From: Alphaproteobacteria bacterium | Lineage (GTDB): Bacteria > Pseudomonadota > Alphaproteobacteria > SPJN01 | Length of the DNA stretch: 64,000 nt | NCBI GenBank assembly: GCA_965229935.1 | Contig: CBDDKB010000002.1 | Location: forward strand, 637,213 to 701,212 | Direction: 5' to 3' | Shown: positions 1,556 through 25,784 of the stretch, piece after piece | Layout: every line of letters begins with the position of its first letter | Numbering within the stretch: the first letter of the stretch is position 1 | Program-made: the position numbers and the translations under genes | The notes under the pieces: generated by a model | What the model saw: the letters and a program-made list of their open reading frames with translations, nothing else | What the model was told of the DNA's origin: nothing | Database searches by the model: none

Positions 1556-1557
1556 CG

Positions 1558-2190: not shown

Positions 2191-2199
2191 GAGAGCGGG

Positions 2200-4875: not shown

Positions 4876-4877
4876 CC

Positions 4878-7085: not shown

Positions 7086-7298
7086 GGGCTATCCCCTTTG
7101 TCCGAAAACCATACTTGTTAGATAAACTGAATCGGGGGGAGGGGGCAAGCAACCTCGCCAGTGGGTGAGTTTGGGGGAATTGCCGCATGATTTCCCGCAG
7201 AAATTCCCGATGAAGGACCAGATACACCGTTGCAAATACACGGTGATTCGGACCATATTGACATAGTTTAACTATGATTTGACCTGACTTGTTACGAG

Positions 7299-9382: not shown

Positions 9383-10038
9383 ATATTGTGATTGTTGATT
9401 ATGGCATGGGCAATCTGTTCAGTGTGGAACGCGCTTTGCAAAGCATCGGGGTGGAGCGGCCCAAAACAACCAGTGATCCTGACAGGCTGGCCGAAGCTGA
9501 ATTTGTTATTCTGCCGGGTGTCGGCGCCTTTGGCGATGGGATGGCGGGGCTGACCCAAAACGGTATGGCAGATGCGCTGCGCGACCATTGTAATCAAGGC
9601 AAGCCATTGCTTGGTATCTGTCTGGGCATGCAAATGCTTGTTGAGGCTAGTGAAGAAAGTCCCGGTGTCGCTGGCCTTGGATTGATCAGGGGACAGGTCA
9701 GGCGGATTGATTCAACAACTGAAAATGGCGCCATGCGTAAGGTGCCTTATGTCGGTTGGGCTAAAATGGCAGTCAATCCATCATGGGGCGGTTCAGATTT
9801 TGCGTGGCCTACAGAAATGATTGCGGGCGAAAGCTTCTATTGCGTCCATTCATTTCAGACTAAGCCTGTAGACGAAAGCTGCACATTATCGAGTTATGAT
9901 TATGACGGGCTTTCTGTTACAGCCGCAATTGCACGAGACAATATTATCGGCACACAGTTCCACCCCGAAAAAAGCGGCAAAAAAGGTTTGGCACTTTTGC
10001 GAGAGGTGTTGGTCACTGCGGGGGTGAGCCTGTCATGA
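9379..10038 (+). CDS. hisH: Glutamine amidotransferase subunit paralog (HisH-like, WbuY type).
   Basis: IVIVDYGMGNLFSVERAL, GICLGMQ (catalytic Cys) and QFHPEKS. ATGA overlap with the HisF-like gene. Confidence 0.85.
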   Translation: MNIVIVDYGMGNLFSVERALQSIGVERPKTTSDPDRLAEAEFVILPGVGAFGDGMAGLTQNGMADALRDHCNQGKPLLGICLGMQMLVEASEESPGVAGLGLIRGQVRRIDSTTENGAMRKVPYVGWAKMAVNPSWGGSDFAWPTEMIAGESFYCVHSFQTKPVDESCTLSSYDYDGLSVTAAIARDNIIGTQFHPEKSGKKGLALLREVLVTAGVSLS

Positions 10039-11153
10039 GGCAGTTTCTTCGTAATCTGTTTTATAAGACCGACGAAACGGAACACTTAATAGGCGCCTTG
10101 GCAGACAAAACGGGCGTGTCAGTGCCGTTTTCCAAAGTCGATGAGGTCATTAAATCCCATCCGCAGCCAGCCCTGTTTGTAGATCGTTTGAACGCGGTTT
10201 TGTCGAGCGAACTGAAGGGGTCATACAAAAAGCTATCAGAGGTCGAGTTAAAGGGGCCACTTGGGCTGCCCAGTTTCGGTTCCGAAGATCTTGACCGGAT
10301 GAGCGCCATATTGGCCTTGCTATTTCCCAAGACTGCGCAGAAGCGGTCAACCCTGTTTGATGACGCGTTGGTGAATGATACCTGCGCGCGCCTTGAGGAA
10401 CAGGGTTATGCTGTCCTGCCGGCAGTGATTAGTGATGAAAAGATTCATTCCTTGATCGACATGTTGGGTAGTTCTAAGCATCGTTTTTTGGAGCTTGAAA
10501 CCAAGGCTGTTCATCTTGGTTATGATCCCGAAGATGCCTTGGCATCGAAGTCCAACACAGTTTTGATCGAAAGTCATGATCTGTTGAATGCGGAAGAAGC
10601 TGTGCGGGATATCGCCTATGATCCCGGAATGCTTGAAATTGCGCAGACCTATCTGGGGGCAGCGCCGATCCATGTGCACACGAATGCGTGGTGGAGTGTT
10701 AACCACAGGCAAGATTATCAGGCGCTTGCAGCGTCGGCGCAGCAATTTCACCAAGACCGCGGTTTCGTTAAATTTCTGAAAGTGTTCTTGTACTTGACCG
10801 ATGTTGGTGAAGAAAATGGTCCTCATGAATATGTGGCAGGATCAGTAAAAGATTTTCGAAAAGCAGTAAAACGACGGCATAAATCCGGAAAACGCTATAC
10901 GCGCGAGCATATGGTCAAAACATTTGGCGAGGAACGCGTTGTCAGTATGGTTGCGCCAAAGGGTACGATGATTTTTGAAGATACTTATGGCTTTCATCGT
11001 GGCGTGCCGGTGCAATCAGGGCATAGGTTCGTCATGGAACTGATTTACGCGAATTCGCTTTTTTGCAGCCAAGTTGTACGCTTTACAGATGCGCCTACAA
11101 ACGTCCCCGTTGACAAGGCGCAAGCCAGCCGTCTTTTGGCAAATTATGATTAA
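10035..11153 (+). CDS. Putative Fe(II)/2-oxoglutarate dioxygenase, PhyH (phytanoyl-CoA dioxygenase)-like C-terminal domain. The N-terminal ~190 aa are unassigned.
   Basis: FHQD (HxD) followed by LYLTDVGEENGPHEYVAGS and a distal FHRG His. ATGA overlap with the hisH-like stop implies co-translation. Confidence 0.55.
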   Translation: MRQFLRNLFYKTDETEHLIGALADKTGVSVPFSKVDEVIKSHPQPALFVDRLNAVLSSELKGSYKKLSEVELKGPLGLPSFGSEDLDRMSAILALLFPKTAQKRSTLFDDALVNDTCARLEEQGYAVLPAVISDEKIHSLIDMLGSSKHRFLELETKAVHLGYDPEDALASKSNTVLIESHDLLNAEEAVRDIAYDPGMLEIAQTYLGAAPIHVHTNAWWSVNHRQDYQALAASAQQFHQDRGFVKFLKVFLYLTDVGEENGPHEYVAGSVKDFRKAVKRRHKSGKRYTREHMVKTFGEERVVSMVAPKGTMIFEDTYGFHRGVPVQSGHRFVMELIYANSLFCSQVVRFTDAPTNVPVDKAQASRLLANYD

Positions 11154-11164
11154 GGGGCAAGACG

Positions 11165-12049
11165 ATGGCTGAACCTCTATTTATTTTGGGCTATCCGAAG
11201 ACGGCGAGTTCCAACTTGGTCGGCATCTTGAACTGTCATCCCGACATTTTCATGCTTTATGAAACCAACTTACGGTCATCGGCAATGTCACGTTATGCGC
11301 AGCAATTGGTTGATGCGTGGCCTGAAACCCGAGGGCTTGTCTATGCGGAGCAGCCGATTGGCAAGCCATATGAGAAGCTTGGCGGCATGCTGCGTGAGAA
11401 ATATGGGCGCGATTACCGCTATGTCGGCGACAAGTTTGCAGGAGAACCTGCCGCAGATTTTACCGGCCTGCCAGGTAAGGTGATGTTCAGCTTGCGGGAT
11501 ATCCGAACATGGCTTGCGAAATCGTCTGTGCAATCCATCTACCAGATTGAAATGGACATCGTTCCGATTGCAATAGATTTTACGGCATTCTTGATGCGCA
11601 CGCATTTGATGCCCCACGGCATGCGGGTCAAGATGGAAGACCTGCTGGCTGATGACACAAGCCTGTTTAAGAAGATTGACGATTTTCTCGATCTAGATTT
11701 ATCCGGTCATGCCGCCCGGTGGTGGCAGGATGTGGGGAAATATAAATCATCTGATCCTAAATCATTGCAAAATTGGGCAAAAGGCCACCCATCATCAACG
11801 ACTAAACCAGCGGGCGAGGACACTGCCGCGGAGTTGGCTGATCACCCCTTTTGGGACGAAATTCTTCCCTTGTTTGACAAATATTATCAGGCGGACAACT
11901 GTTTCAGCGCCGCTGACGTTGAGGGGGATCTAAAGGCGCTAAGGGGGATAGGCGCAATGTCTCCCGTTCGGCTTGACGAAGCCTTTGTCGAAATCACATC
12001 CCATTCAATTGCGAAAAAATCAAAGAGCCGCCTGTTTAAATGGAAATGA
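11165..12049 (+). CDS. Putative sulfotransferase-family protein.
   Basis: FILGYPKTASSNLVGILNCHPDI resembles the 5'-PSB loop (xPKxxxTxL...HP). SLRDIRTW resembles the 3'-PB RDxRD segment. Starts 11 bp after the upstream gene. Confidence 0.45.
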   Translation: MAEPLFILGYPKTASSNLVGILNCHPDIFMLYETNLRSSAMSRYAQQLVDAWPETRGLVYAEQPIGKPYEKLGGMLREKYGRDYRYVGDKFAGEPAADFTGLPGKVMFSLRDIRTWLAKSSVQSIYQIEMDIVPIAIDFTAFLMRTHLMPHGMRVKMEDLLADDTSLFKKIDDFLDLDLSGHAARWWQDVGKYKSSDPKSLQNWAKGHPSSTTKPAGEDTAAELADHPFWDEILPLFDKYYQADNCFSAADVEGDLKALRGIGAMSPVRLDEAFVEITSHSIAKKSKSRLFKWK

Positions 12050-12154
12050 TTATTCCATTTCCTGTTCGTTGCGGCGGTTGATCGGCGTCTTATCGGTAAA
12101 GCTAAGGGGCCAGGTGCTGTACTGCGCCTGATCAGCTCGGATGATAGCGCATGA

Positions 12155-12459
12155 TCAAGTGCCTGTGGGATTGCCGCGATTGGCGGCCTCGTTCGGGGGA
12201 TAGCCAAAATAGCCTTTAAAGGCCTGCGTAAAGTTTGCGGGCTGTTGATAGCCGACACGATATGCGATTTGGGCAATCTGGATATCACCCGCCTTTAACA
12301 GGCGCATCGCCTCCTCCATGCGTAGTTTCAGGGTAAAGTTCATCGGACTGATGCCATATTCCTGCCGGAACCCGGCTGTCAGCTTTCGGCGGCTGACGCC
12401 AACGGCGCGCGCAATTTCGTCAAGGTTGGGTGGTTTGCGATGTCTAACGTCAGGCCCTA
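12155..12459 (-). pseudogene. AraC-family transcriptional regulator remnant. Only the C-terminal HTH domain is left; the N-terminal domain is replaced by the IS end.
   Basis: Reverse-strand translation reads RHRKPPNLDEIARAVGVSRRKLTAGFRQEYGISPMNFTLKLRMEEAMRLLKAGDIQIAQIAYRVGYQQPANFTQAFKGYFGYPP. Homology stops at the IS terminus (12460). Confidence 0.7.
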
Positions 12460-12563
12460 TGGAACAGTCTTAGGGTAATTGTATCAGGAGGATTTCTGGC
12501 TCATCGTAACGACGTAGGGGGTGAGCAGGCAGCGCGCCATTGGTTCGAGCGCAACTGCGAACA

Positions 12564-13064
12564 ATGAGACAGAAATCCAACAATCATAAAGATGCCGCCG
12601 AACGGACCGTGAAGGACATTCGCAGGCGGACCCGTAAAACCTATTCAGCCGAAGAGAAGATCAGGATCGTATTGGCCGGTCTGCGCGGTGAAGAAAGCAT
12701 CGCTAGCCTGTGCAGGCAGGAAGGCATTGCCGAGAGCCTGTACTATTCCTGGTCAAAGGAGTTCCTTGAGGCTGGAAAGCAGCGTCTGGCAGGTGATACA
12801 GCCCGTCAGGCCAGCTCCCCTGAGGTGAAGGCGTTGAAGTCAGAAGCATCCGCCTTGAAAGAGGCTGTTGCGGACCTGACGCTTGAGAACCGTTCGTCGG
12901 GAAAATGGTCCCCCGGACCATTTTCTGATCCTCCTCACCCCAAAAAAAGCATGCTGGGGGGTGAGGCCGACAGCGCGCCACTGGTTCGAGCGCAAGGCCG
13001 AACGAGTACGACGAATGAGATATTCCGCATCAGAAAAGCTAGAGATCATCAGAACAGTGGATAA
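12564..13064 (+). CDS. IS3-family transposase OrfA (HTH_Tnp_1-like), atypically extended.
   Basis: RKTYSAEEKIRIVLAGLRGEESIASLCRQEGIAESLYYSWSKEFLEAGKQRLAGD plus a coiled-coil region. It contains an in-frame hairpin-forming insert and an A7 tract before the KKSML motif. Confidence 0.65.
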   Translation: MRQKSNNHKDAAERTVKDIRRRTRKTYSAEEKIRIVLAGLRGEESIASLCRQEGIAESLYYSWSKEFLEAGKQRLAGDTARQASSPEVKALKSEASALKEAVADLTLENRSSGKWSPGPFSDPPHPKKSMLGGEADSAPLVRAQGRTSTTNEIFRIRKARDHQNSG

Positions 13065-14014
13065 CAGCCATTTGCCCGCCAAGCGGACGCTGGACATGCT
13101 GGGAATACCCAGAACCACCTTCTATCGCTGGTATGATAAGTATCTGACATTGGGGGCGGATGGGCTGGAAGACCGCTCTCCCACACCCGGTCATGTCTGG
13201 AACCGTATTCCTGACACTATCCGTGGTGAAGTCGTTGATATGGCCCTGGAAGAAGATGCGCAGGACCTATCACCAAGGGAACTGGCAACGCGGTTTACCG
13301 ACCAAAAAGCCTATTATGTCTCGGGATCAAGTGTTTACCGCATTCTCAAGGCCCATGACCTGATCACCAGCCCCGCTCACACGGTTATCAAGGCTGCTGA
13401 TGAGTTCAGGGACAAGACCACTGCGATCAACCAGCTTTGGCAGACGGAATTTACCTACTTCAAAATCACAGGCTGGGGCTGGTATTACCTCAGCACCATT
13501 CTTGATGATTATTCCCGCTATATCATCTCATGGCGCCAAGTTGACAGAAGAGGGCAGCACGATGAAGGCAGGTGATGTCATGAACACATTGGATGATGCC
13601 ATTGCCGCATCAGGCTGTGACAAGGTTCATATTGCCCACAAACCCACCTTGCTCAGCGACAATGGCAGTTCCTACATCTCGGGACAGCTGGCTGATTATC
13701 TCAGGGCCAATCACATGCGCCACATTCGGGGTGCGCCGCATCACCCTCAAACACAGGGCAAGATTGAACGCTGGCATCAAACCCTGAAGAACAAGATCCT
13801 GCTCAACAATTATTACCTACCCGGTGATCTGGAACAGGAAATCGGTAACTTCATCAATTACTACAATCATCAGCGCTATCACGAGAGCCTGAACAATGTG
13901 ACACCGGCTGACGTGTACTTCGGGCGTCACCACGCCATTCTGAAACGAAGAAAGGAGATTAAAGACAAGACCATCAAAGCACGCCGCTTGATCCATCAGA
14001 CAAAAGCGACTTAA
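13015..14014 (+). pseudogene. IS3-family transposase OrfB (rve integrase core), interrupted by a 1-nt frameshift near 13534-13538.
   Basis: Frame 1 reads MRYSASEKLEIIR...YLSTILDDYSRYIISW and then terminates. The sequence continues in frame 2 as KLTEEGSTMKAGDV...LLSDNGSSYISG...HPQTQGKIERWHQTLK...YNHQRYHESL. Confidence 0.75.
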
Positions 14015-14069: not shown

Positions 14070-14654
14070 TTATATGAAAACGGACACCTCTTTAAGGGGC
14101 TTGATATTCTGGTAAGGGTTCACAAAGTCATAGCGGCTCGCAGCTTCAGTCATCACCATACGTAGGGGCGTCATGATGTGATTGACCCGCGTTGCTGGTA
14201 ACTGTTTGCCTGTTTCCGGGTTTTCCGCAGCAATGCTTGCTCGAAACTTCAATATATCCGTTTTATTGATTGCAATGACGGGTACACCACCAAATCGGCT
14301 CAACAGATACTTCTGGAAGTTGATCGTGGTCGTATCGATATATGACTGCCGCCACTCGACTTTCTTCTCGTCTATCTATTGCTGGGCAAAGTCAGAGAAG
14401 AGGGGAGCATCTGCATTCAATGCAGCTGCACGTTGGTCGAGTTTATGGAATTCCTCGGCACGACGACTGTTCGGGAAGTATTTACCGTAGTCAAACGTTC
14501 CCAGAACAATCTCGGCTTCAAGACGCTTTAGGATTGTTTGCAGGCGCCGACGATGCTGAGGTAAGTCGTTGAGACCAGTAGCCTCACGACAGCGTTGCTT
14601 CTTATACCTGAAGTCAACGTGAAGCATGTCACCGCGTTTGGTAATTGAAGCCAT
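14070..14654 (-). pseudogene. Tyrosine recombinase (phage-type integrase) remnant. Only the N-terminal arm-binding and SAM-like region is present.
   Basis: MASITKRGDMLHVDFRYKKQRCREATGL (DUF3596-like arm domain). An in-frame TAG lies at 14376-14378 (QQ*IDEKKVEWRQSY). The reading frame ends 3 nt from the IS terminus, and the catalytic domain is absent. Confidence 0.75.
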
Positions 14655-14806
14655 GACGTAATCTGTTAAGCGGTGGCCATAGGCAACATGGCAGGCGCGC
14701 AAGATTCCATGTCCTGTTCAATCTGTTCCCAGATATAAGGGACTTGCGACCGCCAAAGGGGTGGATGTAATGAACGCCTTCAATCAGCACGGAATCTTTA
14801 AGTGAG

Positions 14807-15088
14807 TTGCGGATGGTCCGCGGGGCATACTTGATGCGGGCTGCTAGAGCACTGGTAAGAATGTCTCAAGATGAACTGGTAGAACTCTCTGGCGTATCAA
14901 TCGCAACAATAAGACGATTAGAGGCCAGGGATGGACCGTTACCCAGAAGGTCATCAAGCGGACAAAGAATTATCGAAGTGCTCGAGGGAGCCGGGGTTGT
15001 CTTCACGCCGAGTGACAAGCAAAAGGGGCAGGGCGTTCGCCTAGCAAAGCGAGGCCAATCTCCAAGCGCGTGGCGTCAAAACCTGTAA
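14807..15088 (+). CDS. Small XRE-family helix-turn-helix transcriptional regulator.
   Basis: ARALVRMSQDELVELSGVSIATIRRLE...EVLEGAGVVF. Divergent from the integrase remnant. The start is TTG at 14807 or ATG at 14813. Confidence 0.6.
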   Translation: MRMVRGAYLMRAARALVRMSQDELVELSGVSIATIRRLEARDGPLPRRSSSGQRIIEVLEGAGVVFTPSDKQKGQGVRLAKRGQSPSAWRQNL

Positions 15089-15382
15089 ACAAAATCCAGG
15101 TGCATCGGCGATTTTGAGAAAGGGTGCGCAGAACGGCACTATCAATCTTGGGCGGTCAAACTACAGAATGTCACCGTCTGCATTTCTATAAACTGAATTT
15201 ATTGATTGCTGTTTAATTTGCATGAGGTCACCAAAACTGGATTTGTTGGTGTCTGTTCTGCAGAGCACAAGACTACGAATCTGGGGTCAAGAAAAAGCGA
15301 TTCGTCAGACGAGGCGTGCAGCGCCGAAGGCAGGCGGAGGAAGCCCCCGAAATCTATATTGGGGCCGACCGACGACAATTCT

Positions 15383-15474
15383 CCCCGGTGCGCCACTTCC
15401 GTTCAAAACTGCGAGCTTCTTCCGGGCTTGCTGATTGCCCTTGTATTGCTGCGGCTGCAAGGGCTGCTTTTGAC
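15383..15474. repeat. Copy 1 of a ~92 bp imperfect direct repeat (32 bp near-identical core at 15383-15414).
   Basis: The core CCCCGGTGCGCCACTTCCGTTCAAAACTGCGA matches 21929-21960 at 31 of 32 positions. A second shared block, GCTGCTTTTGAC, lies 80 bp downstream of the core start here and 82 bp downstream in copy 2. Confidence 0.8.
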
Positions 15475-15612
15475 CCTGCGCCCTTGATGCGTGCCTGTGG
15501 CTGGGGAACGGGTTTTGGTGCACAGAACCCGTCGCATGACGGGCTAGTGGCAGAAATCAGTGAAAATCGGAGGCTCAACAACCTGCATCGTTGCTATTCA
15601 TGTATTTTGTAC

Positions 15613-15636
15613 CCCCCGTGTTACTAATCACGGGGG
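15613..15636 (+). terminator. GC-rich stem-loop (possible terminator or insulator upstream of the zur promoter).
   Basis: CCCCCGTG-TTACTAAT-CACGGGGG, an 8 bp perfect stem. No immediate T-run follows, so intrinsic-terminator status is uncertain. Confidence 0.35.
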
Positions 15637-15722
15637 CAACAATTATTGATATTTGTTTCGACAATGATATTGCTGAATTTAATGTGCATTTAACAATCGA
15701 GTTTCACTAATTGTATTGCCGA

Positions 15723-15741
15723 GTGATACAATATAACATCA
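15723..15741 (+). promoter_or_regulatory. Weak candidate Zur box upstream of zur.
   Basis: GTGATACAATATAACATCA carries one good half-site (ATAACAT) and a degenerate partner. It lies 30 bp upstream of the zur ATG. Confidence 0.25.
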
Positions 15742-15770
15742 TAAAATCTGAGTTTCTTGAAGTGTAACCA

Positions 15771-16271
15771 ATGCCTGCTTCCAACAATCCGCAACCATGC
15801 AAAGATCGCAATTGCCGGACCGAGCACAAACCGGAAGAGCGTATTGCGCTCGCCTCATCATTATGTGACGAACGCGGCACCAAGCTAACCAAAACACGAA
15901 GGCAGGTGCTGGAACTGCTGTGGCGAAGTGATCAGCCGATGGGTGCTTACGATCTTATAGATGCGCTTCGTGTCGAAACCGGCAAGACTGTTGCCCCGCC
16001 AACTGTATATCGCGCATTGGATTTCCTGATGACGCAAAATTTGGTCACCAAAATCGAAAGCCTCAACAGCTATATCCCCTGCACCCACCCTGAACGCCCC
16101 CATGATTGCATGTTCTTTTTGTGCAATAGCTGCGGCACGACAATCGAATTGGAAGATCATCGGGTCGAGAAACGCCTTGCTGATGATGCCGCCGCGCTTG
16201 GTTTCCAGGTGACGCGCCGGACGGTCGAAGTCGAAGGCGTGTGCCATGAATGTGCACCTCCCGCCACATAA
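15771..16271 (+). CDS. zur: Fur-family zinc uptake regulator Zur.
   Basis: Winged-helix segment TKTRRQVLELLW...PPTVYRALDFL. Metal-site Cys pairs CNSCG and CHEC. Located in a zinc-transport neighbourhood. Confidence 0.85.
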   Translation: MPASNNPQPCKDRNCRTEHKPEERIALASSLCDERGTKLTKTRRQVLELLWRSDQPMGAYDLIDALRVETGKTVAPPTVYRALDFLMTQNLVTKIESLNSYIPCTHPERPHDCMFFLCNSCGTTIELEDHRVEKRLADDAAALGFQVTRRTVEVEGVCHECAPPAT

Positions 16272-16292
16272 TCGCCCTAAAAACCTAGAAGT

Positions 16293-16934
16293 ATGTGCCA
16301 CCTTTCCACTTTGGCTGCGTTTCAAATGACCAAACTATCAGTTCCCACCGCCTCAATTCTTGCCATCGCAATTTTGGCGTTGCCTTGGTCCTTATCTGCG
16401 CAAGATCACGTCCATAATCATGATCACGACGATCATTACACTGAACGACAACATGAAGCGCACATACACGGCCATGCAGAATTGGGCATTGCTGTGGAAG
16501 GTCATTCTGTTGAGCTTTCACTTGGATCGCCGCTCGCAAATTTTCTGGGGTTTGAGCATACACCGCAAAATGATGATGAGATTGCGGCCCTGAACGACCT
16601 GAAATCACAAATGGCTAGGCCTGGCGACCTATTCAAACTCAGCCCGGCTGCGCAATGCAGCTCCCAATCTGTTGAGATAGAAATTGACGGGCATGAGGGT
16701 CGTGACGAGCATGAAGAACATGGGCATGACGAGCATGGACACGAGGACGCGCATGCAGAATTGCTGGCCGCCTATCGCTTTGCCTGTGCGGCTCCTCAGG
16801 CGCTTAATGATGTTAAGGTAATGCTGTTCACTCTTTTCCCACATTTCGAGGAAATCGACGCCGTTATCCTGACAGACAATGGTCAGACGGCACAAACCCT
16901 GTCTGCGGGCAGCTACGCAATTTCCCTGAAATAG
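16293..16934 (+). CDS. Periplasmic His-rich metal-binding protein, ZrgA-like (DUF2796-type).
   Basis: Signal peptide, with ATG 16326 (MTKLSVPTASILAIAILALPWSLSA) as the more likely start. His-rich runs QDHVHNHDHDDH and HEEHGHDEHGHEDAH. First gene of the ABC cluster. Confidence 0.6.
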   Translation: MCHLSTLAAFQMTKLSVPTASILAIAILALPWSLSAQDHVHNHDHDDHYTERQHEAHIHGHAELGIAVEGHSVELSLGSPLANFLGFEHTPQNDDEIAALNDLKSQMARPGDLFKLSPAAQCSSQSVEIEIDGHEGRDEHEEHGHDEHGHEDAHAELLAAYRFACAAPQALNDVKVMLFTLFPHFEEIDAVILTDNGQTAQTLSAGSYAISLK

Positions 16935-16937
16935 CGC

Positions 16938-17660
16938 ATGAGTGAAACCGCGATCGATATAGAGGGACTGCGTTTCTCATGGGACCGAGGCGCCCTCCTG
17001 CTTAACATCAAGAAAATGACTGTTAAGCCAGGTGAACGTGTGTTTCTTTATGGCCCCAGCGGCAGTGGCAAAAGTACATTGCTTGGGTTGATAGCGGGCG
17101 TGATCGCCCCCCAATCCGGCCAACTGAATATTCTTGGCAATGATCTTGCTGCCATGACGCAAAGCCAGCGTGATCGATTTAGGGCCGATCATATCGGTGT
17201 CATATTTCAAACCTTCAATCTGCTGCCCTACCTTTCGGTGATCGAAAACATTTTGCTGGGGTGCGAGTTTTCAAATGCACGCCGCCATAAAGCAGAACAA
17301 CACAAGGGCGGCGCAGAGGGGGCAGCATCTGAACTACTCGTGCAACTGGGACTTAGCGATGACGTTCGCGACCGCCCCGTGACCGCGCTTAGTATTGGTC
17401 AACAGCAAAGGGTTGCCGTCGCACGCGCTCTTATCGGCGGTCCTGATATTGTGATCGCGGACGAACCGACCTCTGCCCTTGATACCGCGTCGCGTCTGCG
17501 TTTTTTGGACCTGTTAAATGCTGCCTGCGATGCATCCGGCACAACATTACTGTTTGTCAGCCATGACATGACGTTGGCGGCACAATTTGATCGGCAAGTG
17601 GAATTAAATGAGCTTAACAAAAAAACAGCACAATTTGCCGAACAGGGTATGAGCCGATGA
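16938..17660 (+). CDS. ABC transporter ATP-binding protein (LolD/MacB-type; ZrgB-like).
   Basis: Walker A GPSGSGKST, signature LSIGQQQRVAVARAL and Walker B IVIADEPTSALD. Confidence 0.9.
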   Translation: MSETAIDIEGLRFSWDRGALLLNIKKMTVKPGERVFLYGPSGSGKSTLLGLIAGVIAPQSGQLNILGNDLAAMTQSQRDRFRADHIGVIFQTFNLLPYLSVIENILLGCEFSNARRHKAEQHKGGAEGAASELLVQLGLSDDVRDRPVTALSIGQQQRVAVARALIGGPDIVIADEPTSALDTASRLRFLDLLNAACDASGTTLLFVSHDMTLAAQFDRQVELNELNKKTAQFAEQGMSR

Positions 17661-18928
17661 GATTGGGCATCATTCCAAAGCTAGCGTACAAAAGCCTGAT
17701 CAATCGGCGGGTATCGGTGGCACTGACTATATTGTCGATTGCGATCAGCGTTACCTTGTATCTTGGCGTTGATCAAATCCGCAAAAGCGCCCGTACCAGT
17801 TTTGAAACCGCGCTATCGGGAACAGACCTTTTGGTGGGCGCACGCAGCGGTGAAACCAATCTACTCCTCTATGCAGTGTTTCACTTGGGGGAACCTGTCG
17901 CCAATCTGGACTGGCAAACCTATCAGGAATTTGCTGACCACAAAGATGTTGCGTGGACCATTCCGATTTCACTTGGGGATTCATTTCAGGGATACCGGGT
18001 AATCGGCACAAGCGACGCCTATTTTGATCACTTTCAATATGGCGCAAAGCAAAAGCTTGCCTTCGCGACCGGCGCACCATTCGATGATCTTTTTGATGCG
18101 GTACTAGGGGCAGAGGTTGCCAAAGCTCTTAACCTGTCGGTTGGTGACAAGGTCGCCCTGTCCCACGGCATTGGTGCCACCAGCTTTTCAAAGCATGACG
18201 ACAAGCCCTTTATCGTGTCAGGCATTTTGCAGCCGACCGGTACACCCGTTGATCGCGTCGTTCATGTCAGCCTGGCCGGGATTGAGGCGATACATCTAGG
18301 CTGGCAGGGTGGTGTGGCAAGCCCCGCGGCAAGACGATTGTCACAGGATGATGTGCGTGCCATGTCGTTTACCCCCAAGTCGATCACAGCTTTCCTTGTC
18401 GGTATGAAATCGCGGGTTAAGACCTTGCGCCTGCAACGCACCATCAACCTATATAGGAAAGAGCCGCTGACCGCGATCTTGCCGGGGGTCGCCCTAACAC
18501 GTCTTTGGCAAGTGGTTGGCGTTGTTGAAACGGCAATGAAAATCATTGCAGGTTTCGTCATTGCGACGGGTCTGATCGGCATGTTGACGGCAATCTTAAG
18601 CGGCTTGAATGAACGACGGCGCGAAATGGCGTTGTTGCGTGCTGTGGGCGCCCATCCAGTACATATTTCCAGCCTTATGATTTGCGAGGCTGTTGCCATT
18701 GCCTTTACAGGTGCCATGATCGGGGCAGCGTTTGCCGGGATCGGGACGGCGCTGGCCACCCCCCTTATTCAATCATCTTTCGGCATTGTGATGGCACCGA
18801 TTGTTTTCGGGCTTAGCGAGCTGATAATTCTAATGTTCATTGTTGGACTTGCAGCCATATTGGGCTGTTTCCCCGCCTGGGCCGCCTATCGGCGAACAGT
18901 GGCAGATGGATTGACCGTTTCGCAATGA
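17657..18928 (+). CDS. ABC transporter permease, FtsX/MacB-like (ZrgC-like).
   Basis: 423 aa with an N-terminal TM, a large periplasmic loop and a C-terminal FtsX-type 3-TM bundle (RREMALLRAVGA). ATGA overlap with the ATPase gene. Confidence 0.85.
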   Translation: MRLGIIPKLAYKSLINRRVSVALTILSIAISVTLYLGVDQIRKSARTSFETALSGTDLLVGARSGETNLLLYAVFHLGEPVANLDWQTYQEFADHKDVAWTIPISLGDSFQGYRVIGTSDAYFDHFQYGAKQKLAFATGAPFDDLFDAVLGAEVAKALNLSVGDKVALSHGIGATSFSKHDDKPFIVSGILQPTGTPVDRVVHVSLAGIEAIHLGWQGGVASPAARRLSQDDVRAMSFTPKSITAFLVGMKSRVKTLRLQRTINLYRKEPLTAILPGVALTRLWQVVGVVETAMKIIAGFVIATGLIGMLTAILSGLNERRREMALLRAVGAHPVHISSLMICEAVAIAFTGAMIGAAFAGIGTALATPLIQSSFGIVMAPIVFGLSELIILMFIVGLAAILGCFPAWAAYRRTVADGLTVSQ

Positions 18929-18953
18929 TTTCTGGAACGACAAGGAACGCAGC

Positions 18954-19472
18954 ATGCGACTTTTTCTAATATCCTTAATGTCTATCTTGCTTGTCGGCAC
19001 TGCATTTGCGGCTGACCAAGGCACGGAATACCAAACACTGTCTTGGGATGACCTGATGCCCAAAGGGGAATGGGAAAATTATGACCGATTATTCCAATCC
19101 TTGTTTGAGGCCGGGAATGTCGCAGAAGGCGGCCCGCAGGATCGGATGATCCAACTTGGCACGTTTAAAACCGTGCCTGAACTTGATGGCAAAAAGGTCC
19201 GCATGCCCGGCCTTGTCCTGCCGTTTGAGTTTAATTCGGAAAATCTCATTACTGAATTCTTACTGGTTCCTTATTTCGGCGCGTGTATTCACGCGCCACC
19301 GCCACCTCCAAACCAAATTGTCTATGTCAAAAGCGAATTGGGCATTGTGGTAGAAAGGCTGTGGATGCCAGTTTGGGCGTCTGGGACCCTTCACACCACA
19401 AAAAAGGAAAACGAGCTTGGCGACGCAGCCTATACGTTAACGCTTGATTGGGCTGAACCTTTTGAGGAATAA
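18954..19472 (+). CDS. DUF3299-like secreted protein (ZrgD-like).
   Basis: Signal peptide MRLFLISLMSILLVGTAFA. The motif LLVPYFGACIHAPPPPPNQ is characteristic of DUF3299 as I recall it. Confidence 0.55.
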   Translation: MRLFLISLMSILLVGTAFAADQGTEYQTLSWDDLMPKGEWENYDRLFQSLFEAGNVAEGGPQDRMIQLGTFKTVPELDGKKVRMPGLVLPFEFNSENLITEFLLVPYFGACIHAPPPPPNQIVYVKSELGIVVERLWMPVWASGTLHTTKKENELGDAAYTLTLDWAEPFEE

Positions 19473-19505
19473 GGCGCAGCTTGACCATTCCCCCCGCCTT
19501 CGGTA

Positions 19506-19529
19506 GATATGTTATAATATAACGTTATC
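19506..19529 (+). promoter_or_regulatory. Zur box (zinc-responsive operator) in front of the DUF1826/MerC-like/COG0523 genes.
   Basis: GATATGTTATAATATAACGTTATC, with a perfect 13 bp palindrome GTTATAATATAAC at 19511-19523. It ends 13 bp upstream of the ATG at 19542 and matches the proteobacterial Zur consensus (ATGTTATnATAACAT). Confidence 0.7.
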
Positions 19530-19541
19530 AGGGTAATTATC

Positions 19542-20237
19542 ATGTCTACCGAACAGATTCGGCCCTATATTGGCGCTGAATCCAGTTTTCAATCTGGCCA
19601 AACAGCCAACGACCATACCTTCATGCAGGTTGGCCGCGCTGCCGATCTGTCTGCGGTCAATCAGGCTGACATAGGGCTTGTTTTATGGCGCAGATCACCA
19701 GACACACAATTGGCACAGTTCGTCAGCTCACTCGACGTCGAAGACATTCCTCATGAACGGCTGCTTGTGCAGATCACCGATGTCAGACAGGCCCTGACCA
19801 ATATTCTGAATGCGCAGGCCGTTGGTGACTATGATGGCGTTGACGCCTTTATCGACGACATTGTGATCCAGTGCGAGACCTTCAGCACAATCAGCGGCTC
19901 CCCCATTGTTGATATTCGCATCGATCATATTCGCGGCAATGCCTGCCGAAAATTTCATCGCGATAATGTTCCCCTGCGCATGATTTGCACCTATCGCGGC
20001 CCCGGCACCCAAATTGTGCCTGACGATCACGCGGCTGAGGCTATTAAATCACAAGCCGACTATACCGGCCCGGTGTTTGAGTTGCCGCAATTTTCTGTCG
20101 CTTTATTTAAGGGTGCGTGGCAGTCCGCAAACGGTACCGTGCACCGCTCCCCACCTATTGAGGGGCAAGATATTTCCCGTCTGGTTGTTTGTCTAAACAC
20201 GCCATCAATTGTTTCGCCAGAGCTAACCCTGCTCTGA
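19542..20237 (+). CDS. DUF1826-like protein (a family commonly found in Zur regulons next to COG0523).
   Basis: 231 aa. The CRKFHRDNVPLRMICTYRGPGTQ segment resembles the DUF1826 core. Assigned from memory and context. Confidence 0.45.
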   Translation: MSTEQIRPYIGAESSFQSGQTANDHTFMQVGRAADLSAVNQADIGLVLWRRSPDTQLAQFVSSLDVEDIPHERLLVQITDVRQALTNILNAQAVGDYDGVDAFIDDIVIQCETFSTISGSPIVDIRIDHIRGNACRKFHRDNVPLRMICTYRGPGTQIVPDDHAAEAIKSQADYTGPVFELPQFSVALFKGAWQSANGTVHRSPPIEGQDISRLVVCLNTPSIVSPELTLL

Positions 20238-20257
20238 CTGGTTACGGAACCTCACAA

Positions 20258-20635
20258 ATGACTGCAAAATCAGCAACGTTGGATGCGGGCGCCATTGCCC
20301 TTTCGGCACTGTGTTTGGTCCACTGCCTAGCCCTGCCCCTATTTGCTTCTACCCTGCCGGTACTGGGCACTTTGGCAGAGGCTGAGTGGGTCCATCGCCT
20401 TTTGGTTTTTCTAGCGGCCCCGATACCGATTATCGCTGTGGTCACAGACCCCAAAGGACGGCGTTTGGTAGAGTTTGCGATACTTGCCTTTCTGGGCATC
20501 GGCATGTTGCTATCAGCCGCCTTTATAGAGGCGCTCCACGACCATGAGACAGCTATAACAGTGGTCGGGGCATGCATCTTATCTGTGGCCCATATCCGGC
20601 GCTGGGCCTTTGGGCACAAGCCAATTGAGGGTTGA
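20258..20635 (+). CDS. Small integral membrane protein, MerC-like.
   Basis: About 125 aa with four predicted TM helices. The first helix carries LCLVHCLALP, a Cys/His pair in the MerC-like position. The ATG at 20258 is preferred over the track start at 20189, which overlaps the upstream gene. Confidence 0.45.
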   Translation: MTAKSATLDAGAIALSALCLVHCLALPLFASTLPVLGTLAEAEWVHRLLVFLAAPIPIIAVVTDPKGRRLVEFAILAFLGIGMLLSAAFIEALHDHETAITVVGACILSVAHIRRWAFGHKPIEG

Positions 20636-21789
20636 GCGAGAAGATGGAAGACGCAGTTCTTAAAAATGCCGCAACACAATTTCCTGTGTCTGTCCTGACA
20701 GGCTTTCTTGGCAGCGGCAAAACAACGGTACTTAGTCACCTCATTCAACAGCCCGCATTTAGCAAAACATTGGTCCTGATCAATGAGTTTGGCGAAATCG
20801 GGCTGGATCATGATCTGGTGACATCCAGCAATGATGACACGGTCATTGAAATGTCCAGCGGCTGCCTATGCTGCACCATTCGGGGGGATCTTGCCAAAAC
20901 CCTGCGCGAAGCACCTCATCGATTTTCCAGAAATGGGGAGACTTGGTTTGACCGCGTTGTCATTGAAACAACCGGACTGGCAGATCCTGCGCCCATTCTA
21001 CATACATTGATGAACGAACCAGGTCTTGCCAAACACTATCGCCTAGATGGTGTCATTACCGCAATTGATGCCGTGAATGGCAGCGACACGCTTGATCGGC
21101 AGATTGAGTCGGTTAAGCAGGTTGCTTTGGCAGATCGCTTGCTGATCACAAAAACAGATCTAGCTGAAGATGACGCATTACAAAGCTTACAGGGTCGGTT
21201 GCGTGCCTTGAACCCGGCTGCGTCGCAGATCAAAGCGGACAATGGCAAGGTAGACCCGGACCAGCTTTTTGGTGCTGGCATGTATGACCCAAAATCCAAG
21301 ACATTGGACGCACAGAACTGGCTAAATGCCGAGGCCTATAGTGACTCGCATGACCATGGTCACAGCCACGACCACAATCACGGGCATGATCACCATCACG
21401 ATCATGACCACAATGATGTTAATCGTCATGATGACCATATCAAGGCATTGTGCCTGACAATTGACGACCCAATCAATGGCGAAGCATTTGACCTATGGCT
21501 CAAAGGGTTGTTGTTGCTTAGAGGGGCCGACCTTCTACGCGTCAAAGGCATTTTGAACATAATCGGCTTTGATGGGCCAGTCATCGTTCACGGTGTTCAA
21601 CACATCTTCCACCCCGCTATTGCGCTTGATGAATGGCCAAGTGAAGACCGTCGATCTCGCATTGTATTTATTACGCGCGATATGGACGAAGCCACGCTAC
21701 GCGACACCTTGAAAATGTTTGATTCAACCGAGGTAGAGCCCGACGAGTTCATTGCAAAAGTTATGGGTGACGCTGGCTCGTCTGCGTGA
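20632..21789 (+). CDS. COG0523-family G3E GTPase zinc metallochaperone (CobW/ZigA/YeiR-like).
   Basis: P-loop GFLGSGKTT, metal motif GCLCCT and a His-rich tract SHDHGHSHDHNHGHDHHHDHDHN. The start is TTG at 20632 or ATG at 20644. Confidence 0.9.
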   Translation: MSEKMEDAVLKNAATQFPVSVLTGFLGSGKTTVLSHLIQQPAFSKTLVLINEFGEIGLDHDLVTSSNDDTVIEMSSGCLCCTIRGDLAKTLREAPHRFSRNGETWFDRVVIETTGLADPAPILHTLMNEPGLAKHYRLDGVITAIDAVNGSDTLDRQIESVKQVALADRLLITKTDLAEDDALQSLQGRLRALNPAASQIKADNGKVDPDQLFGAGMYDPKSKTLDAQNWLNAEAYSDSHDHGHSHDHNHGHDHHHDHDHNDVNRHDDHIKALCLTIDDPINGEAFDLWLKGLLLLRGADLLRVKGILNIIGFDGPVIVHGVQHIFHPAIALDEWPSEDRRSRIVFITRDMDEATLRDTLKMFDSTEVEPDEFIAKVMGDAGSSA

Positions 21790-21928
21790 TCTGTACCCCC
21801 AATAGCCTTTTGTAAAATTTGCTGTTTTCCGCCTATGAAGACGGGTCGTGGCCGAGGAACAATGAAAGCGGCCGATTGTGGAATGGTCTAGATGTCCATG
21901 CAAATCCACCAGTTCGCGCTTTCATCTT

Positions 21929-22022
21929 CCCCGGTGCGCTACTTCCGTTCAAAACTGCGAACGTCCTTCTTGTGATGGTGATTTGTCCGTGTACAGTGTC
22001 GACATGAAGAGCTGCTTTTGAC
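21929..22022. repeat. Copy 2 of the ~92 bp imperfect direct repeat (core at 21929-21960).
   Basis: CCCCGGTGCGCTACTTCCGTTCAAAACTGCGA ... GCTGCTTTTGAC. Same orientation as copy 1. The central ~50 nt are diverged. Confidence 0.8.
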
Positions 22023-22279
22023 GCAAATCAGTGGAGCTATGCAGCTAATACCTTAGAAGTTCGGACAGCAGTGCCGTAGGCTATCTCAGCTGTGAATTCG
22101 CTGGCGGCTTGATGACACAATAGATAACGAGAGCCCCTTGACACATTAGGGCAGCGGTCAATATTAACGCCGATTCATATTGCCAAAATTGACGTAGTCA
22201 CATGATGGACACAAAATGGTCACAGCGCATATCTTGTAAAACTGCCACTCTTGTAATATGCTGGTTTTTAATGATTATT

Positions 22280-22356
<77 letters not shown>

Positions 22357-22608: not shown

Positions 22609-25527
22609 TTAGAAGCGATAGCGTGCTTCGATTTCAAATTCCGTTGTTGGGATGCGGCCACCAAAGTGTGACCCGGTAAAGGTGGGAACGTCATTGTTAC
22701 CGGCCAATTCTTTGACATCCAGTACATTTGTGACAAAGCCCATGATATGCCAGTTTTCATCAAGACCACGGATACCAATACGGGCCCCATGGGTCCAATA
22801 GGCATTCCGTACATCCAACGGATCAAGGTCGCGTGCTAGATGTACTTCTGATGCATAGACCGCTGTCCAGCCCGCATGAACACGGAACGGCAGATTGAAA
22901 ATCTGGTCGTCAAATGTTGCGTTCAATGTCACCTGAACCTCGGGAATATTGTTCAGCTTTTCGCCGGTCAGGTCACAAGGCGGATCCTGTTCGACATCTT
23001 CAACAGAACAGGGGCCCGTTGTGAAGTTGTCATATGTACCTTCTGTAAAGGCACCATTTGCTGTCAGGAACAATCCCATAAAGGGTACCAACATTGCTTC
23101 CCATTCAATGCCGCTGATGGTTGCGCTTGCAGCGTTTGACACAACAAAGCTCACGCCATCAAATGCTGACACCTGAATGTCATCAAATTTGGTATAGAAG
23201 GCTGAAATGTTCAGGCGTGCAGCGCCTTCAAGCCATTCAGATTTCATCCCAATTTCGAATGCATTGGAAATTTCTTCTTCATATTCCAATTGGTCTGGGT
23301 TCAGAGGCTGGGCATTAAATCCGCCAGACTTATACCCCTGCGCCAATGTGATGTAGGTCATCAGATCATCTGTCCAATTGACCTGCGTTGATACCTTAGG
23401 CGCAATGTTGAATTCGGTCCGTTCCCGTTCTTCGATAAAGCTGGTGTTGCCGCTTTGAATAACAGGGAATGAAACCACACCGCCGGGCGTGCCTTCTTGC
23501 AGGGAGCCGCGCGTACCAGTGCCGCCACCTGTGCCAAGGCCAAGGGGGTCAAAGTTGAAAAGTCCGTGATCTACGAAAATCTCTTTCTTTTCATAACCAA
23601 TGCGTAGGCCGGGGGTAACTGACCAAGTATCAGTAATGTGCCAGGTTGCCTGACCAAATAGTGCATAAGAGGTGGTTTTTTGGTCAAACAATGTGGCTGA
23701 ACGTTCCAATAATGGCGTTCCCAGTCCGTCTTGTCGTGCCTTGGTTTCTTGGGCGGCGAGCGTGCTGGTGGCAATACCGGCAGGCCCATTATAGTTTTCG
23801 TCAAAGAAAGCTCGACGCAATGCAGGGTCTGTAGTGGCTGCATTGAACGCGATGATTTCACCAGCACCCGTCAGCGCCAGAATTTCTGGCAGTGTCACGA
23901 AAGCATCGACATCATATGTCGCAAGGATATTGTTCTGATAGTAGAACAGACCCATGATCCATTCCAATTCACCCGGTGCTGATGTCCAACGCAGTTCCTG
24001 ACTGACTTGGTCATAGAACTCGTTATTGTCCAAGGTGATAAACGGAATGGGCGAGAAGTCAGCGTCAAAGAACACCAGTTCGTCGAACTCTGCATAGTTG
24101 GTGACACTGGTCAATGTGTGTTCGCCAATGTCCCATTCGACTTTGGCGGTAAAGTCCATGACCTCACGCTCAACAAAGCCTGGTGCATCTTGGTGGGTTT
24201 TATCATCAAAGACATCTGCTGTAGTTTCTGGGTCGAAAACTTCAAACGCGGCAAGGTGGCGTGATTTCGCAGCAGTTAGCTGCGTACCTGAACCACCTTG
24301 GTCAACCGTGCTGTAATTGGCGGTGAACTGTGCATACAGGCTGGGAGTGATTTCCCATTTTACTTTCGCGCGGAAATTCTGGTTGTCCAGATTCCGTTCC
24401 ATTCGACCGTTCAGCGTTGTGTTTTCAATGTCGCCATCCTGTTCTTCGTCAAGAAAGGCGAGACGGAACGATAGTTTGTCGCTGAATAAGGGGCCGCCGC
24501 CAGCCAGACGGACACGGTGATGGCCGTTTGACCCATAAAGAGCATCGCCATCAATTGACCATTCTGGTTCAGGATCAGCCGTTTTCAGGTGAAGCGCACC
24601 TGCGGCTGAGTTCTTGCCATACAAAGTGCCTTGCGGGCCGCGCAACACTTCAACTGCAGAAAGGTCGAGCAAGCCGTTGGAGACATAGGAAGGCCGACCA
24701 TAAAAGACTTCGTCAATGATGATGCCGACTGATTGTTCAAAGCCGCGGTTATAGTCTGACCCAACGCCGCGCATATAAATAAAGTTAAAGGTCGGCGTTG
24801 CCAGAATGCTCATGTTAGGGGCGTGACTTGCAACATCGTTTAAGTCTGACATGTTCTTTTCTTTGATTGCCTCGCCGCCGATGGCAGTCACGGACAAAGG
24901 CACATCCTGAATGTCTTCAGCACGCTTTTGCGCGGTCACGATAATTTCGTCCAACTGTGCGCGGCGTGGTTTCGGCGCAGGGGCGCTTGCCTCAACCTCT
25001 GCATCGGCTTCAGCGCCAGCGGCTTCTGCTACCGCAGCCGCTTCCATGTTTGTTTCTTCGGCAGGGGCGGGTGTGTCATCAAAGACTAATACATCGTCTT
25101 CAGATGATGTTGCGGTATCATCCGCCATCGTCATCGGTTCTTCTTCGGCCATTGCTGGTTCATCGGCCATTGCAGGCTCATCAGCAGTTGATTCGTCTTC
25201 GGCCGGATCGTTGGCAGGCTCGTCCTCAGCCATTGCCATATCATCGCTTGATGAAGCTTGGTCTGCGGGTTCTTGGTCTTCACCGGCAGAACTGTCCTCT
25301 TCGGCCATTGCCATTTCCGTGTCTTCGGAATCGAAATCGTCAAACAGGAATTCTTCGTCGACATCACTTGTGTCATCACCGAACAGACCTGAATCGTCTG
25401 AATTGTCTTCAGCCATAAAGTCCAGCTCATCCTGTGCATAGGCAGGTGAGTGATAAATAATAGTCCCTGAAGACAGTGCTGTCGCAACAGCAAGGCCAAA
25501 CAGCCCATGGCGCAATTCTTTACGCAT
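22609..25527 (-). CDS. TonB-dependent outer-membrane receptor with a long acidic N-terminal extension.
   Basis: Signal peptide MRKELRHGLFGLAVATALSSGTIIYHSPAYA, then a ~150 aa D/E/A/M-rich region. Plug domain (DEIIVTAQKRAEDIQDVPLSVTAI...VEVLRGPQGTLYGKNSAAG). Barrel ends in EIEARYRF. A GGGGGA RBS precedes the ATG at 25527. Confidence 0.9.
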   Translation of the reverse strand: MRKELRHGLFGLAVATALSSGTIIYHSPAYAQDELDFMAEDNSDDSGLFGDDTSDVDEEFLFDDFDSEDTEMAMAEEDSSAGEDQEPADQASSSDDMAMAEDEPANDPAEDESTADEPAMADEPAMAEEEPMTMADDTATSSEDDVLVFDDTPAPAEETNMEAAAVAEAAGAEADAEVEASAPAPKPRRAQLDEIIVTAQKRAEDIQDVPLSVTAIGGEAIKEKNMSDLNDVASHAPNMSILATPTFNFIYMRGVGSDYNRGFEQSVGIIIDEVFYGRPSYVSNGLLDLSAVEVLRGPQGTLYGKNSAAGALHLKTADPEPEWSIDGDALYGSNGHHRVRLAGGGPLFSDKLSFRLAFLDEEQDGDIENTTLNGRMERNLDNQNFRAKVKWEITPSLYAQFTANYSTVDQGGSGTQLTAAKSRHLAAFEVFDPETTADVFDDKTHQDAPGFVEREVMDFTAKVEWDIGEHTLTSVTNYAEFDELVFFDADFSPIPFITLDNNEFYDQVSQELRWTSAPGELEWIMGLFYYQNNILATYDVDAFVTLPEILALTGAGEIIAFNAATTDPALRRAFFDENYNGPAGIATSTLAAQETKARQDGLGTPLLERSATLFDQKTTSYALFGQATWHITDTWSVTPGLRIGYEKKEIFVDHGLFNFDPLGLGTGGGTGTRGSLQEGTPGGVVSFPVIQSGNTSFIEERERTEFNIAPKVSTQVNWTDDLMTYITLAQGYKSGGFNAQPLNPDQLEYEEEISNAFEIGMKSEWLEGAARLNISAFYTKFDDIQVSAFDGVSFVVSNAASATISGIEWEAMLVPFMGLFLTANGAFTEGTYDNFTTGPCSVEDVEQDPPCDLTGEKLNNIPEVQVTLNATFDDQIFNLPFRVHAGWTAVYASEVHLARDLDPLDVRNAYWTHGARIGIRGLDENWHIMGFVTNVLDVKELAGNNDVPTFTGSHFGGRIPTTEFEIEARYRF

Positions 25528-25784
25528 GCGAAAGGTCCCCCGTAATGTTGTCCACCTAATCGGAAACAAGAAAGACATCGCTGTTTTCAGCCATGCCTTT
25601 GACTATCCCCGACTTCCCCTAGGCGCATATTTTCATATGCAGGGTCAATTTAGCCGAGAATGAGGGGGGATGAAAAGGGAAATATCACGAATTTACAAAT
25701 TGCTGTTGGTTAATAGGTGATAGGGGGTTTGCAGACTCGTGTCATAGGAGTAAGAGTTTCCTGAAATATCCGCACAAAATTGGC

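Follow-up and report, generated by a model that had tools for sequence, protein, structure and literature searches.

A 64,000-nt stretch of an Alphaproteobacteria bacterium genome (GenBank assembly GCA_965229935.1, contig CBDDKB010000002.1, forward-strand positions 637,213 to 701,212), hereafter called the window, carries two copies of a direct repeat that enclose a zinc-acquisition gene module. We conclude that each copy is very probably the decayed recombinase-proximal end of a member of an alphaproteobacterial family of integrative mobilisable elements or integrative conjugative elements (IMEs or ICEs). In intact members of this family, a gene for a large serine recombinase faces a tRNA gene, usually one for tRNA-Arg, from the other strand and runs into the tRNA 3' end. 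In the window, both recombinase genes seem to have been destroyed except for their last codons. The two copies are scars that have no present function of their own.

The first-pass annotation of the window had described a 32-bp core that occurs twice in the same orientation, a second shared block that follows the core starts at +80 and +82, a related but diverged stretch between the two blocks, and an arrangement of the copies that encloses exactly the genes from zur through the COG0523 gene. All of these features were recovered in our analysis. The cores are identical at 31 of 32 positions, with the lone difference (C versus T) at position 12, and the match between them grows to 38 nt (35/38 identical). 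The second block, GCTGCTTTTGAC, has the larger of the two spacings in copy 2. The whole unit spans 97 nt in copy 1 and 99 nt in copy 2, and a global alignment gives 77% identity that is spread unevenly along the unit, with about 86% across columns 1 to 42, about 64% for the middle part, and a perfect terminal stretch (12/12). The differences fall in clusters and leave a 33-column run with at most one of them (permutation p = 0.008), and their pattern roughly tracks conservation in the recombinase family described below (rho 0.18, p 0.048). Similarity between the copies stops abruptly on both sides, at about 15378 and 21924 on the left and at 15474 and 22022 on the right, and the longest perfect match is 20 nt. 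When the window was searched with the 32-mer and with each of its halves, allowing up to three mismatches, two copies were found versus 0.00 to 0.06 expected, where the value for the 32-mer (0.00) comes from 100 shuffles. The number of enclosed genes is exactly seven.

We then searched for exact matches to a 19-mer of the core, CTTCCGTTCAAAACTGCGA, in 185,579 species genomes (GTDB, one per species) and in Joint Genome Institute (JGI) metagenomes. This search returned 28 loci, including 10 from species genomes and 18 from metagenomes. Nine of the 10 species-genome loci are alphaproteobacterial (five from Bosea and the others from Chelatococcus, Hoeflea, a Beijerinckiaceae metagenome-assembled genome, and an uncultured alphaproteobacterium), and half of the metagenome loci (9/18) are of the same tRNA/recombinase kind. 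In all 18 related loci, the 19-mer is present as a single copy and starts one base past the CCA of a tRNA or a tRNA fragment. These tRNAs are mostly tRNA-Arg; 11 are complete (Arg-CCG, Arg-ACG, Arg-TCT, and Glu-TTC) and seven are partial (3' fragments). The loci assigned to the recombinase family are L001-L008, L010, L015, L019, L020, L023-L027, L031, and L038. The remaining 10 of the 28 loci are unrelated coding coincidences, for example at N-termini that read MKIAVLNGS, and these were excluded (L009, L014, L016-18, L021, L022, and L028-30).

At the related loci, the DNA past the junction is the reverse strand of a long open reading frame (ORF) that reads through the junction into the tRNA 3' end. 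The ORF encodes a large serine recombinase of 550 to 640 aa with Resolvase, Recombinase, and Zn_ribbon_recom domains, and its C-terminus follows the pattern ...V/IRI[I/L]G[D/S/N]K.T[L/I]E.A...GVRSFERKWRA[R/Q].[D/E]SN. The last codons, ...G-V-R-S-F-E-R-K-W-R..., correspond to the reverse complement of ...GCCA followed by CTTCCGTTCAAAACTGCGAAC. Distant relatives of this recombinase include CcrB, XisF, SPbeta SprA, and the A118 integrase. The family belongs to a known kind, though our literature searches yielded no description of the family itself, of its ...RSFERKW tail, or of its reading into a tRNA. Furthermore, genes for a TrwC relaxase and for a TrwB/TraG-type coupling protein adjoin the recombinase (L007, L019, L001, and L038). 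Therefore, the intact elements are IMEs or ICEs.

Some related loci have a more elaborate arrangement. In L001 (2115-3515), L002, L020, and L038 (7040-8323), a tyrosine integrase is located directly upstream of a partial tRNA-Arg(CCG), which is followed by the serine recombinase. The partial tRNA in these Bosea loci begins at the anticodon loop. The window shows a comparable succession in decayed form, with a tyrosine-integrase stump, a tRNA-Arg(ACG) fragment, and then the serine-recombinase remnant in copy 1. This gene order indicates that two kinds of integrative elements stack at the same tRNA, and composite islands are evidently common at these tRNAs.

Both repeat copies in the window contain the junction seen in the related loci, namely a tRNA 3' end (…GCCA) and then CTTCCGTTCAAAACTGCGA, with the CCA mutated to CTA in copy 2. 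The initial annotation had placed neither copy in a credible ORF, but both lie in short minus-strand frames that are recognisable gene remnants when examined with tblastn and with a profile hidden Markov model (HMM). The minus-strand translation of copy 1 ends with …ARIKGAGSKAALAAAAIQGQSASPEEARSFERKWRTGENCRRSAPI and a stop codon. This copy keeps about 40 recombinase codons, whereas about 510 upstream codons are gone, and it holds about 12 further recombinase-like codons (RIKGAG...) past the end that it shares with copy 2. It was the only match in the window when Bosea and Hoeflea recombinases were used as tblastn queries (query residues 601-628 and 511-547), and blastn aligns it with L007 along the full 100-nt unit. 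Copy 2 retains about 30 recombinase codons. Its reading is split between two frames, one with ASKAALHVDTVHGQ… and one with VRSFERK plus a stop codon, and the 2-nt frameshift between these frames is the difference between the 80- and 82-nt spacings of the two copies. The lone core difference converts TGG (Trp) to TAG in copy 2, which on the opposite strand is the change from CCA to CTA in the tRNA.

Thirteen distinct family members supplied their last 48 residues for the HMM, which was run on 3,147 six-frame segments of the window. Copy 1 ranked first (E 3.8e-7) and copy 2 ranked second (0.0066), followed by a segment at 0.46. The conserved and diverged parts of the repeat also have counterparts in the protein. 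Specifically, the G-S-K-A-A codons in the family motif RIIG(D/S)K.TL read as GCTGCTTTTGAC in reverse complement, and the diverged middle of the repeat is the variable linker of the family. No full recombinase (Resolvase, Recombinase, and Zn-ribbon) was found in the 64-kb window by tblastn. Only the C-terminal stumps are present, and therefore we regard the locus as a relic rather than as a working member of the family. Likewise, there are no relaxase or coupling-protein genes in the window.

The tRNA portion of each copy is about 14 to 18 nt. Copy 1 shares a 9-nt segment (GGTGCGCCA) with the tRNA-Arg(CCG) gene of the window itself, where it forms the 3' end. Crossover is most likely to occur at the tRNA CCA end, since the sequence common to members with four different tRNAs begins at ...GCCA. 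The integration junction of intact members would then be CCA/CTTCCGTTC, with crossover near the CCA, and the element would contribute its half of the attachment site as the 21 nt to the right of the CCA. Only in the sense that the core is probably a recombinase half-site can the earlier suggestion of a protein-binding element be retained. We attribute the near-invariance of the 32-nt core to a double constraint, in which the same nucleotides would encode the protein tail and serve as the recombinase binding site. The 45 nt or so that follow the core code for a variable linker and have drifted, and GCTGCTTTTGAC has been kept as motif codons. A 45-nt GTTCG...CGAAC symmetry is centred on the middle C of the CCA and might fit a serine-recombinase site, but we give it little weight given that 10 of 22 mirrored positions agree. 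Two other candidates were rejected during this analysis. GGTGCGC was considered as a dif/Xer site, but its flanking arms lack dif-like symmetry and the tRNA reading accounts for those bases. A decayed T-arm or anticodon-arm within the 50 to 90 nt upstream of each copy was dropped (shuffle p 0.15-0.9).

The copies had been proposed to be attL/attR-like sites of a cassette whose nearby integrase is dead, and of the options in the first-pass annotation this one comes nearest to what was observed, although it holds only in part. The copies may also be recombination substrates that allow loss or amplification of the zinc module, another option of that annotation, but their longest perfect match is 20 nt and a family recombinase was not found in the window. 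A junction of tRNA and attachment arm is indeed present, but the same recombinase-proximal type occurs twice, and therefore the copies are not a simple attL/attR pair. A dead integrase also exists, although it is not the nearby rve transposase but a serine recombinase, of which the repeat itself forms the last 30 to 40 codons. The tyrosine type is represented by another dead integrase at 14376-14702. The uneven divergence between the copies suggests that two related recombinase genes diverged while functional, rather than that a dead fragment was duplicated. On the simplest but tentative account, which we hold at somewhat less than even confidence, the two scars represent two related elements that accreted in tandem, and the zinc module (15396-21941), which has a regulator and Zur boxes of its own, is the surviving cargo of the first element. 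After later deletions, the module would resemble a recombinase-less pseudo-cassette, which would depend on a family recombinase acting in trans for any movement.

Several observations weigh against this interpretation, either as a whole or in part. Only short stumps remain, and the protein-level score of copy 2 is modest. A clean tRNA::element junction no longer exists at either copy, and the flanks beyond about 18 nt upstream of either copy are not significantly tRNA-like (shuffle p 0.15-0.9). The sole intact tRNA nearby, tRNA-Arg(CCG), is 320 nt away from copy 2 and points the other way, and a model of tandem accretion and cargo would have to accommodate copies that are inverted relative to it. 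A far-end (attR-type) site was not found for any family member within the retrieved DNA of the related loci, which counts against the tandem and cargo part of the account; the left arm of copy 2 might be such a far-end site. Moreover, the invariance of the 19-mer across loci is partly an artefact of exact-match searching, and the count of two repeat copies applies to the 64-kb window, with the remainder of the source genome absent from the genome collection that was scanned.

Other explanations for the repeat pair were also considered. Rather than two elements, one relic of a recombinase tail, about 97 nt long, might have been duplicated as a unit, either through a segmental duplication or when the zinc module was inserted. 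In favour of this explanation, each copy has the other as its closest counterpart within the family, the two have in common an unusual CCCCGG variant of the tRNA end, and their similarity is sharply bounded on both sides. However, neutral decay of a duplicated unit is not expected to leave the non-uniform divergence noted above, with its near-invariant core, diverged middle, and perfectly matched end, and the extra codons in copy 1 make the right-hand boundary simply the point at which copy 2 was truncated. We therefore consider duplication as a unit to be unlikely. A different proposal is that the copies are still-active recombination sites at which a full-length family recombinase, encoded elsewhere in the genome, excises or moves the 6.5-kb zinc cassette in trans. 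Recombinase-less cassettes between such sites exist for other serine recombinases, as in the pseudo-elements of the staphylococcal cassette chromosome (SCC) type, and neither copy has lost much of the element-side arm or of the putative crossover region. Nevertheless, present-day activity appears unlikely because the window lacks a family recombinase, the arms on the tRNA side are degenerate (by sequence inspection, they lack a GTTCG motif at the family spacing), and the longest perfect match is as short as 20 nt. In addition, the lone core difference places CCA opposite CTA at the presumed crossover, a point at which serine recombinases require identical sequences, and both sites are of the same type. 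Mobilisation of the cassette in trans is thus very unlikely.

We find it barely credible that the copies are two members of a family of small structured RNAs or of a dispersed repeat family resembling repetitive extragenic palindromes (REPs) or miniature inverted-repeat transposable elements (MITEs). The layout of a conserved core and variable arms would agree with such a family, as would a hairpin followed by CTTTT within copy 1, but the layout is explained by the codons together with the attachment site. Rfam searches at gathering and relaxed thresholds matched only tRNA, plus a sub-threshold hit to Atu_C7 (E 0.14). When both strands of both copies were folded, no shared secondary structure was found; the minimum-free-energy folds are unlike between the copies, with z values from -1.2 to +1.5 on either strand. 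Thus, the structured RNA family put forward in the first-pass annotation is not borne out. The same annotation had raised the prospect of a high-copy REP-like element, and the repeat does not behave as one: there is a single copy in each of the 18 other loci, always at a tRNA/recombinase junction, and there are two in 64 kb.

A more far-reaching reading is that undescribed and widespread serine recombinases of alphaproteobacterial IMEs and ICEs insert at the CCA end of tRNA-Arg (occasionally tRNA-Glu), and that the zinc module is a trans-mobilisable cassette. If so, the recombinase stop codon would lie inside the tRNA, the attachment arm would double as the last eight codons, and a self-regulated Zur/Zrg/COG0523 module would be delimited by two such sites. 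We regard this combined reading as doubtful and favour the interpretation that the copies are decayed recombinase-proximal ends. The parts of the copies and the features around them are listed in Table 1.

Table 1. Features of the repeat pair, the enclosed module, and the adjacent DNA (window coordinates)
Feature	Position	Strand	Evidence or remark
Copy 1 core, CCCCGGTGCGCCACTTCCGTTCAAAACTGCGA	15383-15414		Direct sequence reading
Copy 2 core, CCCCGGTGCGCTACTTCCGTTCAAAACTGCGA	21929-21960		Direct sequence reading
Extended 38-nt core match	15382-15419 and 21928-21965		Repeat search
Second block, copy 1	15463-15474		
Second block, copy 2	22011-22022		
Copy 1 tRNA-derived part: acceptor-stem 3' strand and CCA (…CCCCGGTGCGCCA)	15378-15395	+	14/18 match to L019 tRNA-Arg(CCG) end
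Copy 1 putative element-side attachment arm, CTTCCGTTCAAAACTGCGAGC	15396-15416	.	Minus-strand codons (A)RSFERK; exact 19-mer at 18 tRNA/recombinase junctions
Copy 1 C-terminal pseudogene stump of large serine recombinase	15357-15509	-	tblastn; family C-terminus HMM
Copy 2 tRNA-derived part (…CCCCGGTGCGCTA; CCA mutated to CTA)	21924-21941	+	Sequence comparison
Copy 2 putative attachment arm and recombinase C-terminal stump	21942-22030	-	Reading frames; HMM
tRNA-Arg(ACG) internal fragment, tRNA positions 22-50	15262-15292	+	24/25 identity to L007 tRNA, E 9e-7
Intact tRNA-Arg(CCG)	22280-22356	-	ARAGORN and Rfam
Zinc module: zur, zrgA, ABC ATPase, FtsX permease, DUF3299, DUF1826, COG0523 GTPase	15771-21789	+	Pfam; NCBIfam Zur
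zur	15771-16271		
COG0523 GTPase gene	20632-21789		
Weak Zur-box-like site, 32 nt before zur	15723-15739	+	14/17 match to ATGTTATAATATAACAT
Palindromic Zur box, ATGTTATAATATAACGT, before DUF1826/COG0523	19509-19525	.	1 mismatch; 0.05 expected
Insertion sequence (IS) remnant, three overlapping frameshifted transposase ORFs	12540-14014	+	Pfam
Tyrosine integrase N-terminal stump, 108 aa, Arm-DNA-bind_2	14376-14702	-	Pfam, E 2e-19
Small Xre/MerR-like helix-turn-helix gene	14807-15088	+	Between the IS and the tRNA fragment
AraC-type C-terminal fragment, looks inactivated	11887-12288	-	

The closest available relative is GCA_006844605.1 (locus L032), whose FolD is 86% identical, and the two genomes share the order tRNA-Arg(CCG), TonB-dependent receptor, folD, DAO, and onwards. 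Nucleotide homology between them reaches precisely to window position 22280, the 3' end of tRNA-Arg(CCG), and no farther. Past this tRNA, L032 (741-6397) has a type I restriction-modification system with AbiU2, and not the zinc module. Judged by this comparison, the DNA left of 22280 is a strain-variable island, and the tRNA 3' end is its boundary with the conserved chromosome. Since a different island lies beyond the same tRNA in L032, tRNA-Arg(CCG) is an island hot spot in this lineage.

The immediate neighbourhood is a graveyard of mobile elements that includes the tyrosine-integrase stump, the IS, and the tRNA-Arg(ACG) fragment. The three IS ORFs match HTH_Tnp_1, HTH_32 with the N-terminus of rve, and the C-terminus of rve, respectively, and the IS looks inactivated. 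The tyrosine integrase is missing its 3' part on the side that faces the IS. The tRNA-Arg(ACG) fragment covers the 3' strand of the D-stem, the anticodon arm, and the variable loop. It lacks both a 5' and a 3' end, is separated from copy 1 by about 90 nt of unrelated sequence, and is not a functional tRNA; ARAGORN reports no tRNA at this position. The local alignment of the fragment is better than all of 2,000 shuffles. A 10-nt tRNA-like match at 12252-12261 was considered as an island end and was discarded as a chance match inside the AraC-type coding fragment.

Two further observations concern this region. Within copy 1, positions 15438-15474 of the plus strand form a 7-bp hairpin (GCCCTTG…CAAGGGC) followed by TGCTTTTGA, an arrangement that looks terminator-like and is not kept in copy 2. 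The left flank of the window (446-12049) is a sugar or capsule modification cluster of a variable type, with genes for NeuB, a PglD-like acetyltransferase, a CBS-nucleotidyltransferase, a CMP-sugar cytidylyltransferase, a HisF/HisH-like pair, a capsule-synthesis protein, PhyH, and a sulfotransferase. Its G+C fraction is about 0.50 versus about 0.55 in the right half of the window.

The genes enclosed by the two copies can also be written as zur-zrgABCDE-COG0523, and the closest homologue of ZrgC is 70% identical. No Zur box was found before the gene for the TonB-dependent receptor (22609-25578). The first-pass annotation had pointed to zinc modules without flanking repeats in related strains as a relevant comparison. 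The closest zinc modules elsewhere do lack such repeats, with no repeat, tRNA, or recombinase relic in the two nearest modules (L039 and L040) or in three zur-COG0523 loci (L035-L037). The closest COG0523 homologues (L011-L013) are in unrelated contexts and were of no use for synteny. In L035 (5084-6013 and 11289-13890), a zur-COG0523/DUF1826 cluster is located between transposases of the IS1595 and DDE_Tnp_1 types, which is a hint that such zinc modules travel.

Islands linked to tRNA genes, tRNA fragments left behind by integrative elements, and alphaproteobacterial IMEs or ICEs with serine recombinases are all established (PMC4383910, PMC9897764, PMC8627217), and IMEs and ICEs of the MOBF type have been catalogued in Mesorhizobium (PMC8627217). 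The intact relatives of our relics resemble these MOBF elements in that, at tRNA-Arg, they combine a large serine recombinase with a TrwC (MOBF) relaxase and a coupling protein. In contrast, the window keeps two stumps of 30 to 40 codons and the attachment arm, without a catalytic domain, relaxase, or coupling protein. The locus also shares a tRNA-Arg hot spot, variable content, tRNA fragments, and a dead tyrosine integrase with islands formed by tyrosine integrases (Islander-type; PMC4383910). In classical tRNA islands, attL and attR are a duplicated 3' segment of the tRNA (PMC4383910). The repeat described here instead includes about 14 to 18 nt of tRNA and runs about 80 nt past the tRNA end into a serine-recombinase gene. 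Unlike an attL/attR pair of the tyrosine-integrase type, neither copy is part of an intact tRNA, and tRNA-Arg(CCG) is inverted relative to both.

There is a mechanistic likeness to the SCC elements of staphylococci and enterococci, in which large serine recombinases (Ccr) insert at the 3' end of a conserved gene. SCC elements also build up as tandem arrays in which internal repeats mark off the cassettes, and some cassettes (pseudo-SCC) lack ccr. CcrB is the best curated model match for the L019 recombinase (E 5e-51), although the score of 174 bits falls well short of the cut-off of 900 bits. Unlike SCC, the target here is a tRNA CCA end rather than rlmH, and the hosts belong to another phylum. 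The intact members likewise have the same domain architecture as large serine integrases of phages (A118, 4KIS; SPbeta SprA, 9DXH; TP901-1). These integrases are distant in sequence (E 1e-10 to 1e-7), and the elements described here are conjugative or mobilisable elements rather than phages.

The repeat is an ordinary scar of horizontal gene transfer and not a new RNA or regulatory element, and one candidate for such an element can be struck off. The junction of tRNA CCA and CTTCCGTTCAAAACTGCGAAC, together with the protein tail RSFERKW, provides a compact signature for the recombinase family and its relics in Alphaproteobacteria. The family also represents a natural set of recombinases that apparently target a conserved tRNA 3' end, which may be of some interest for integrase bioprospecting. 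For the organism studied here, the DNA that houses the zinc-acquisition module was acquired horizontally, varies among strains, and lies at a tRNA-Arg hot spot.

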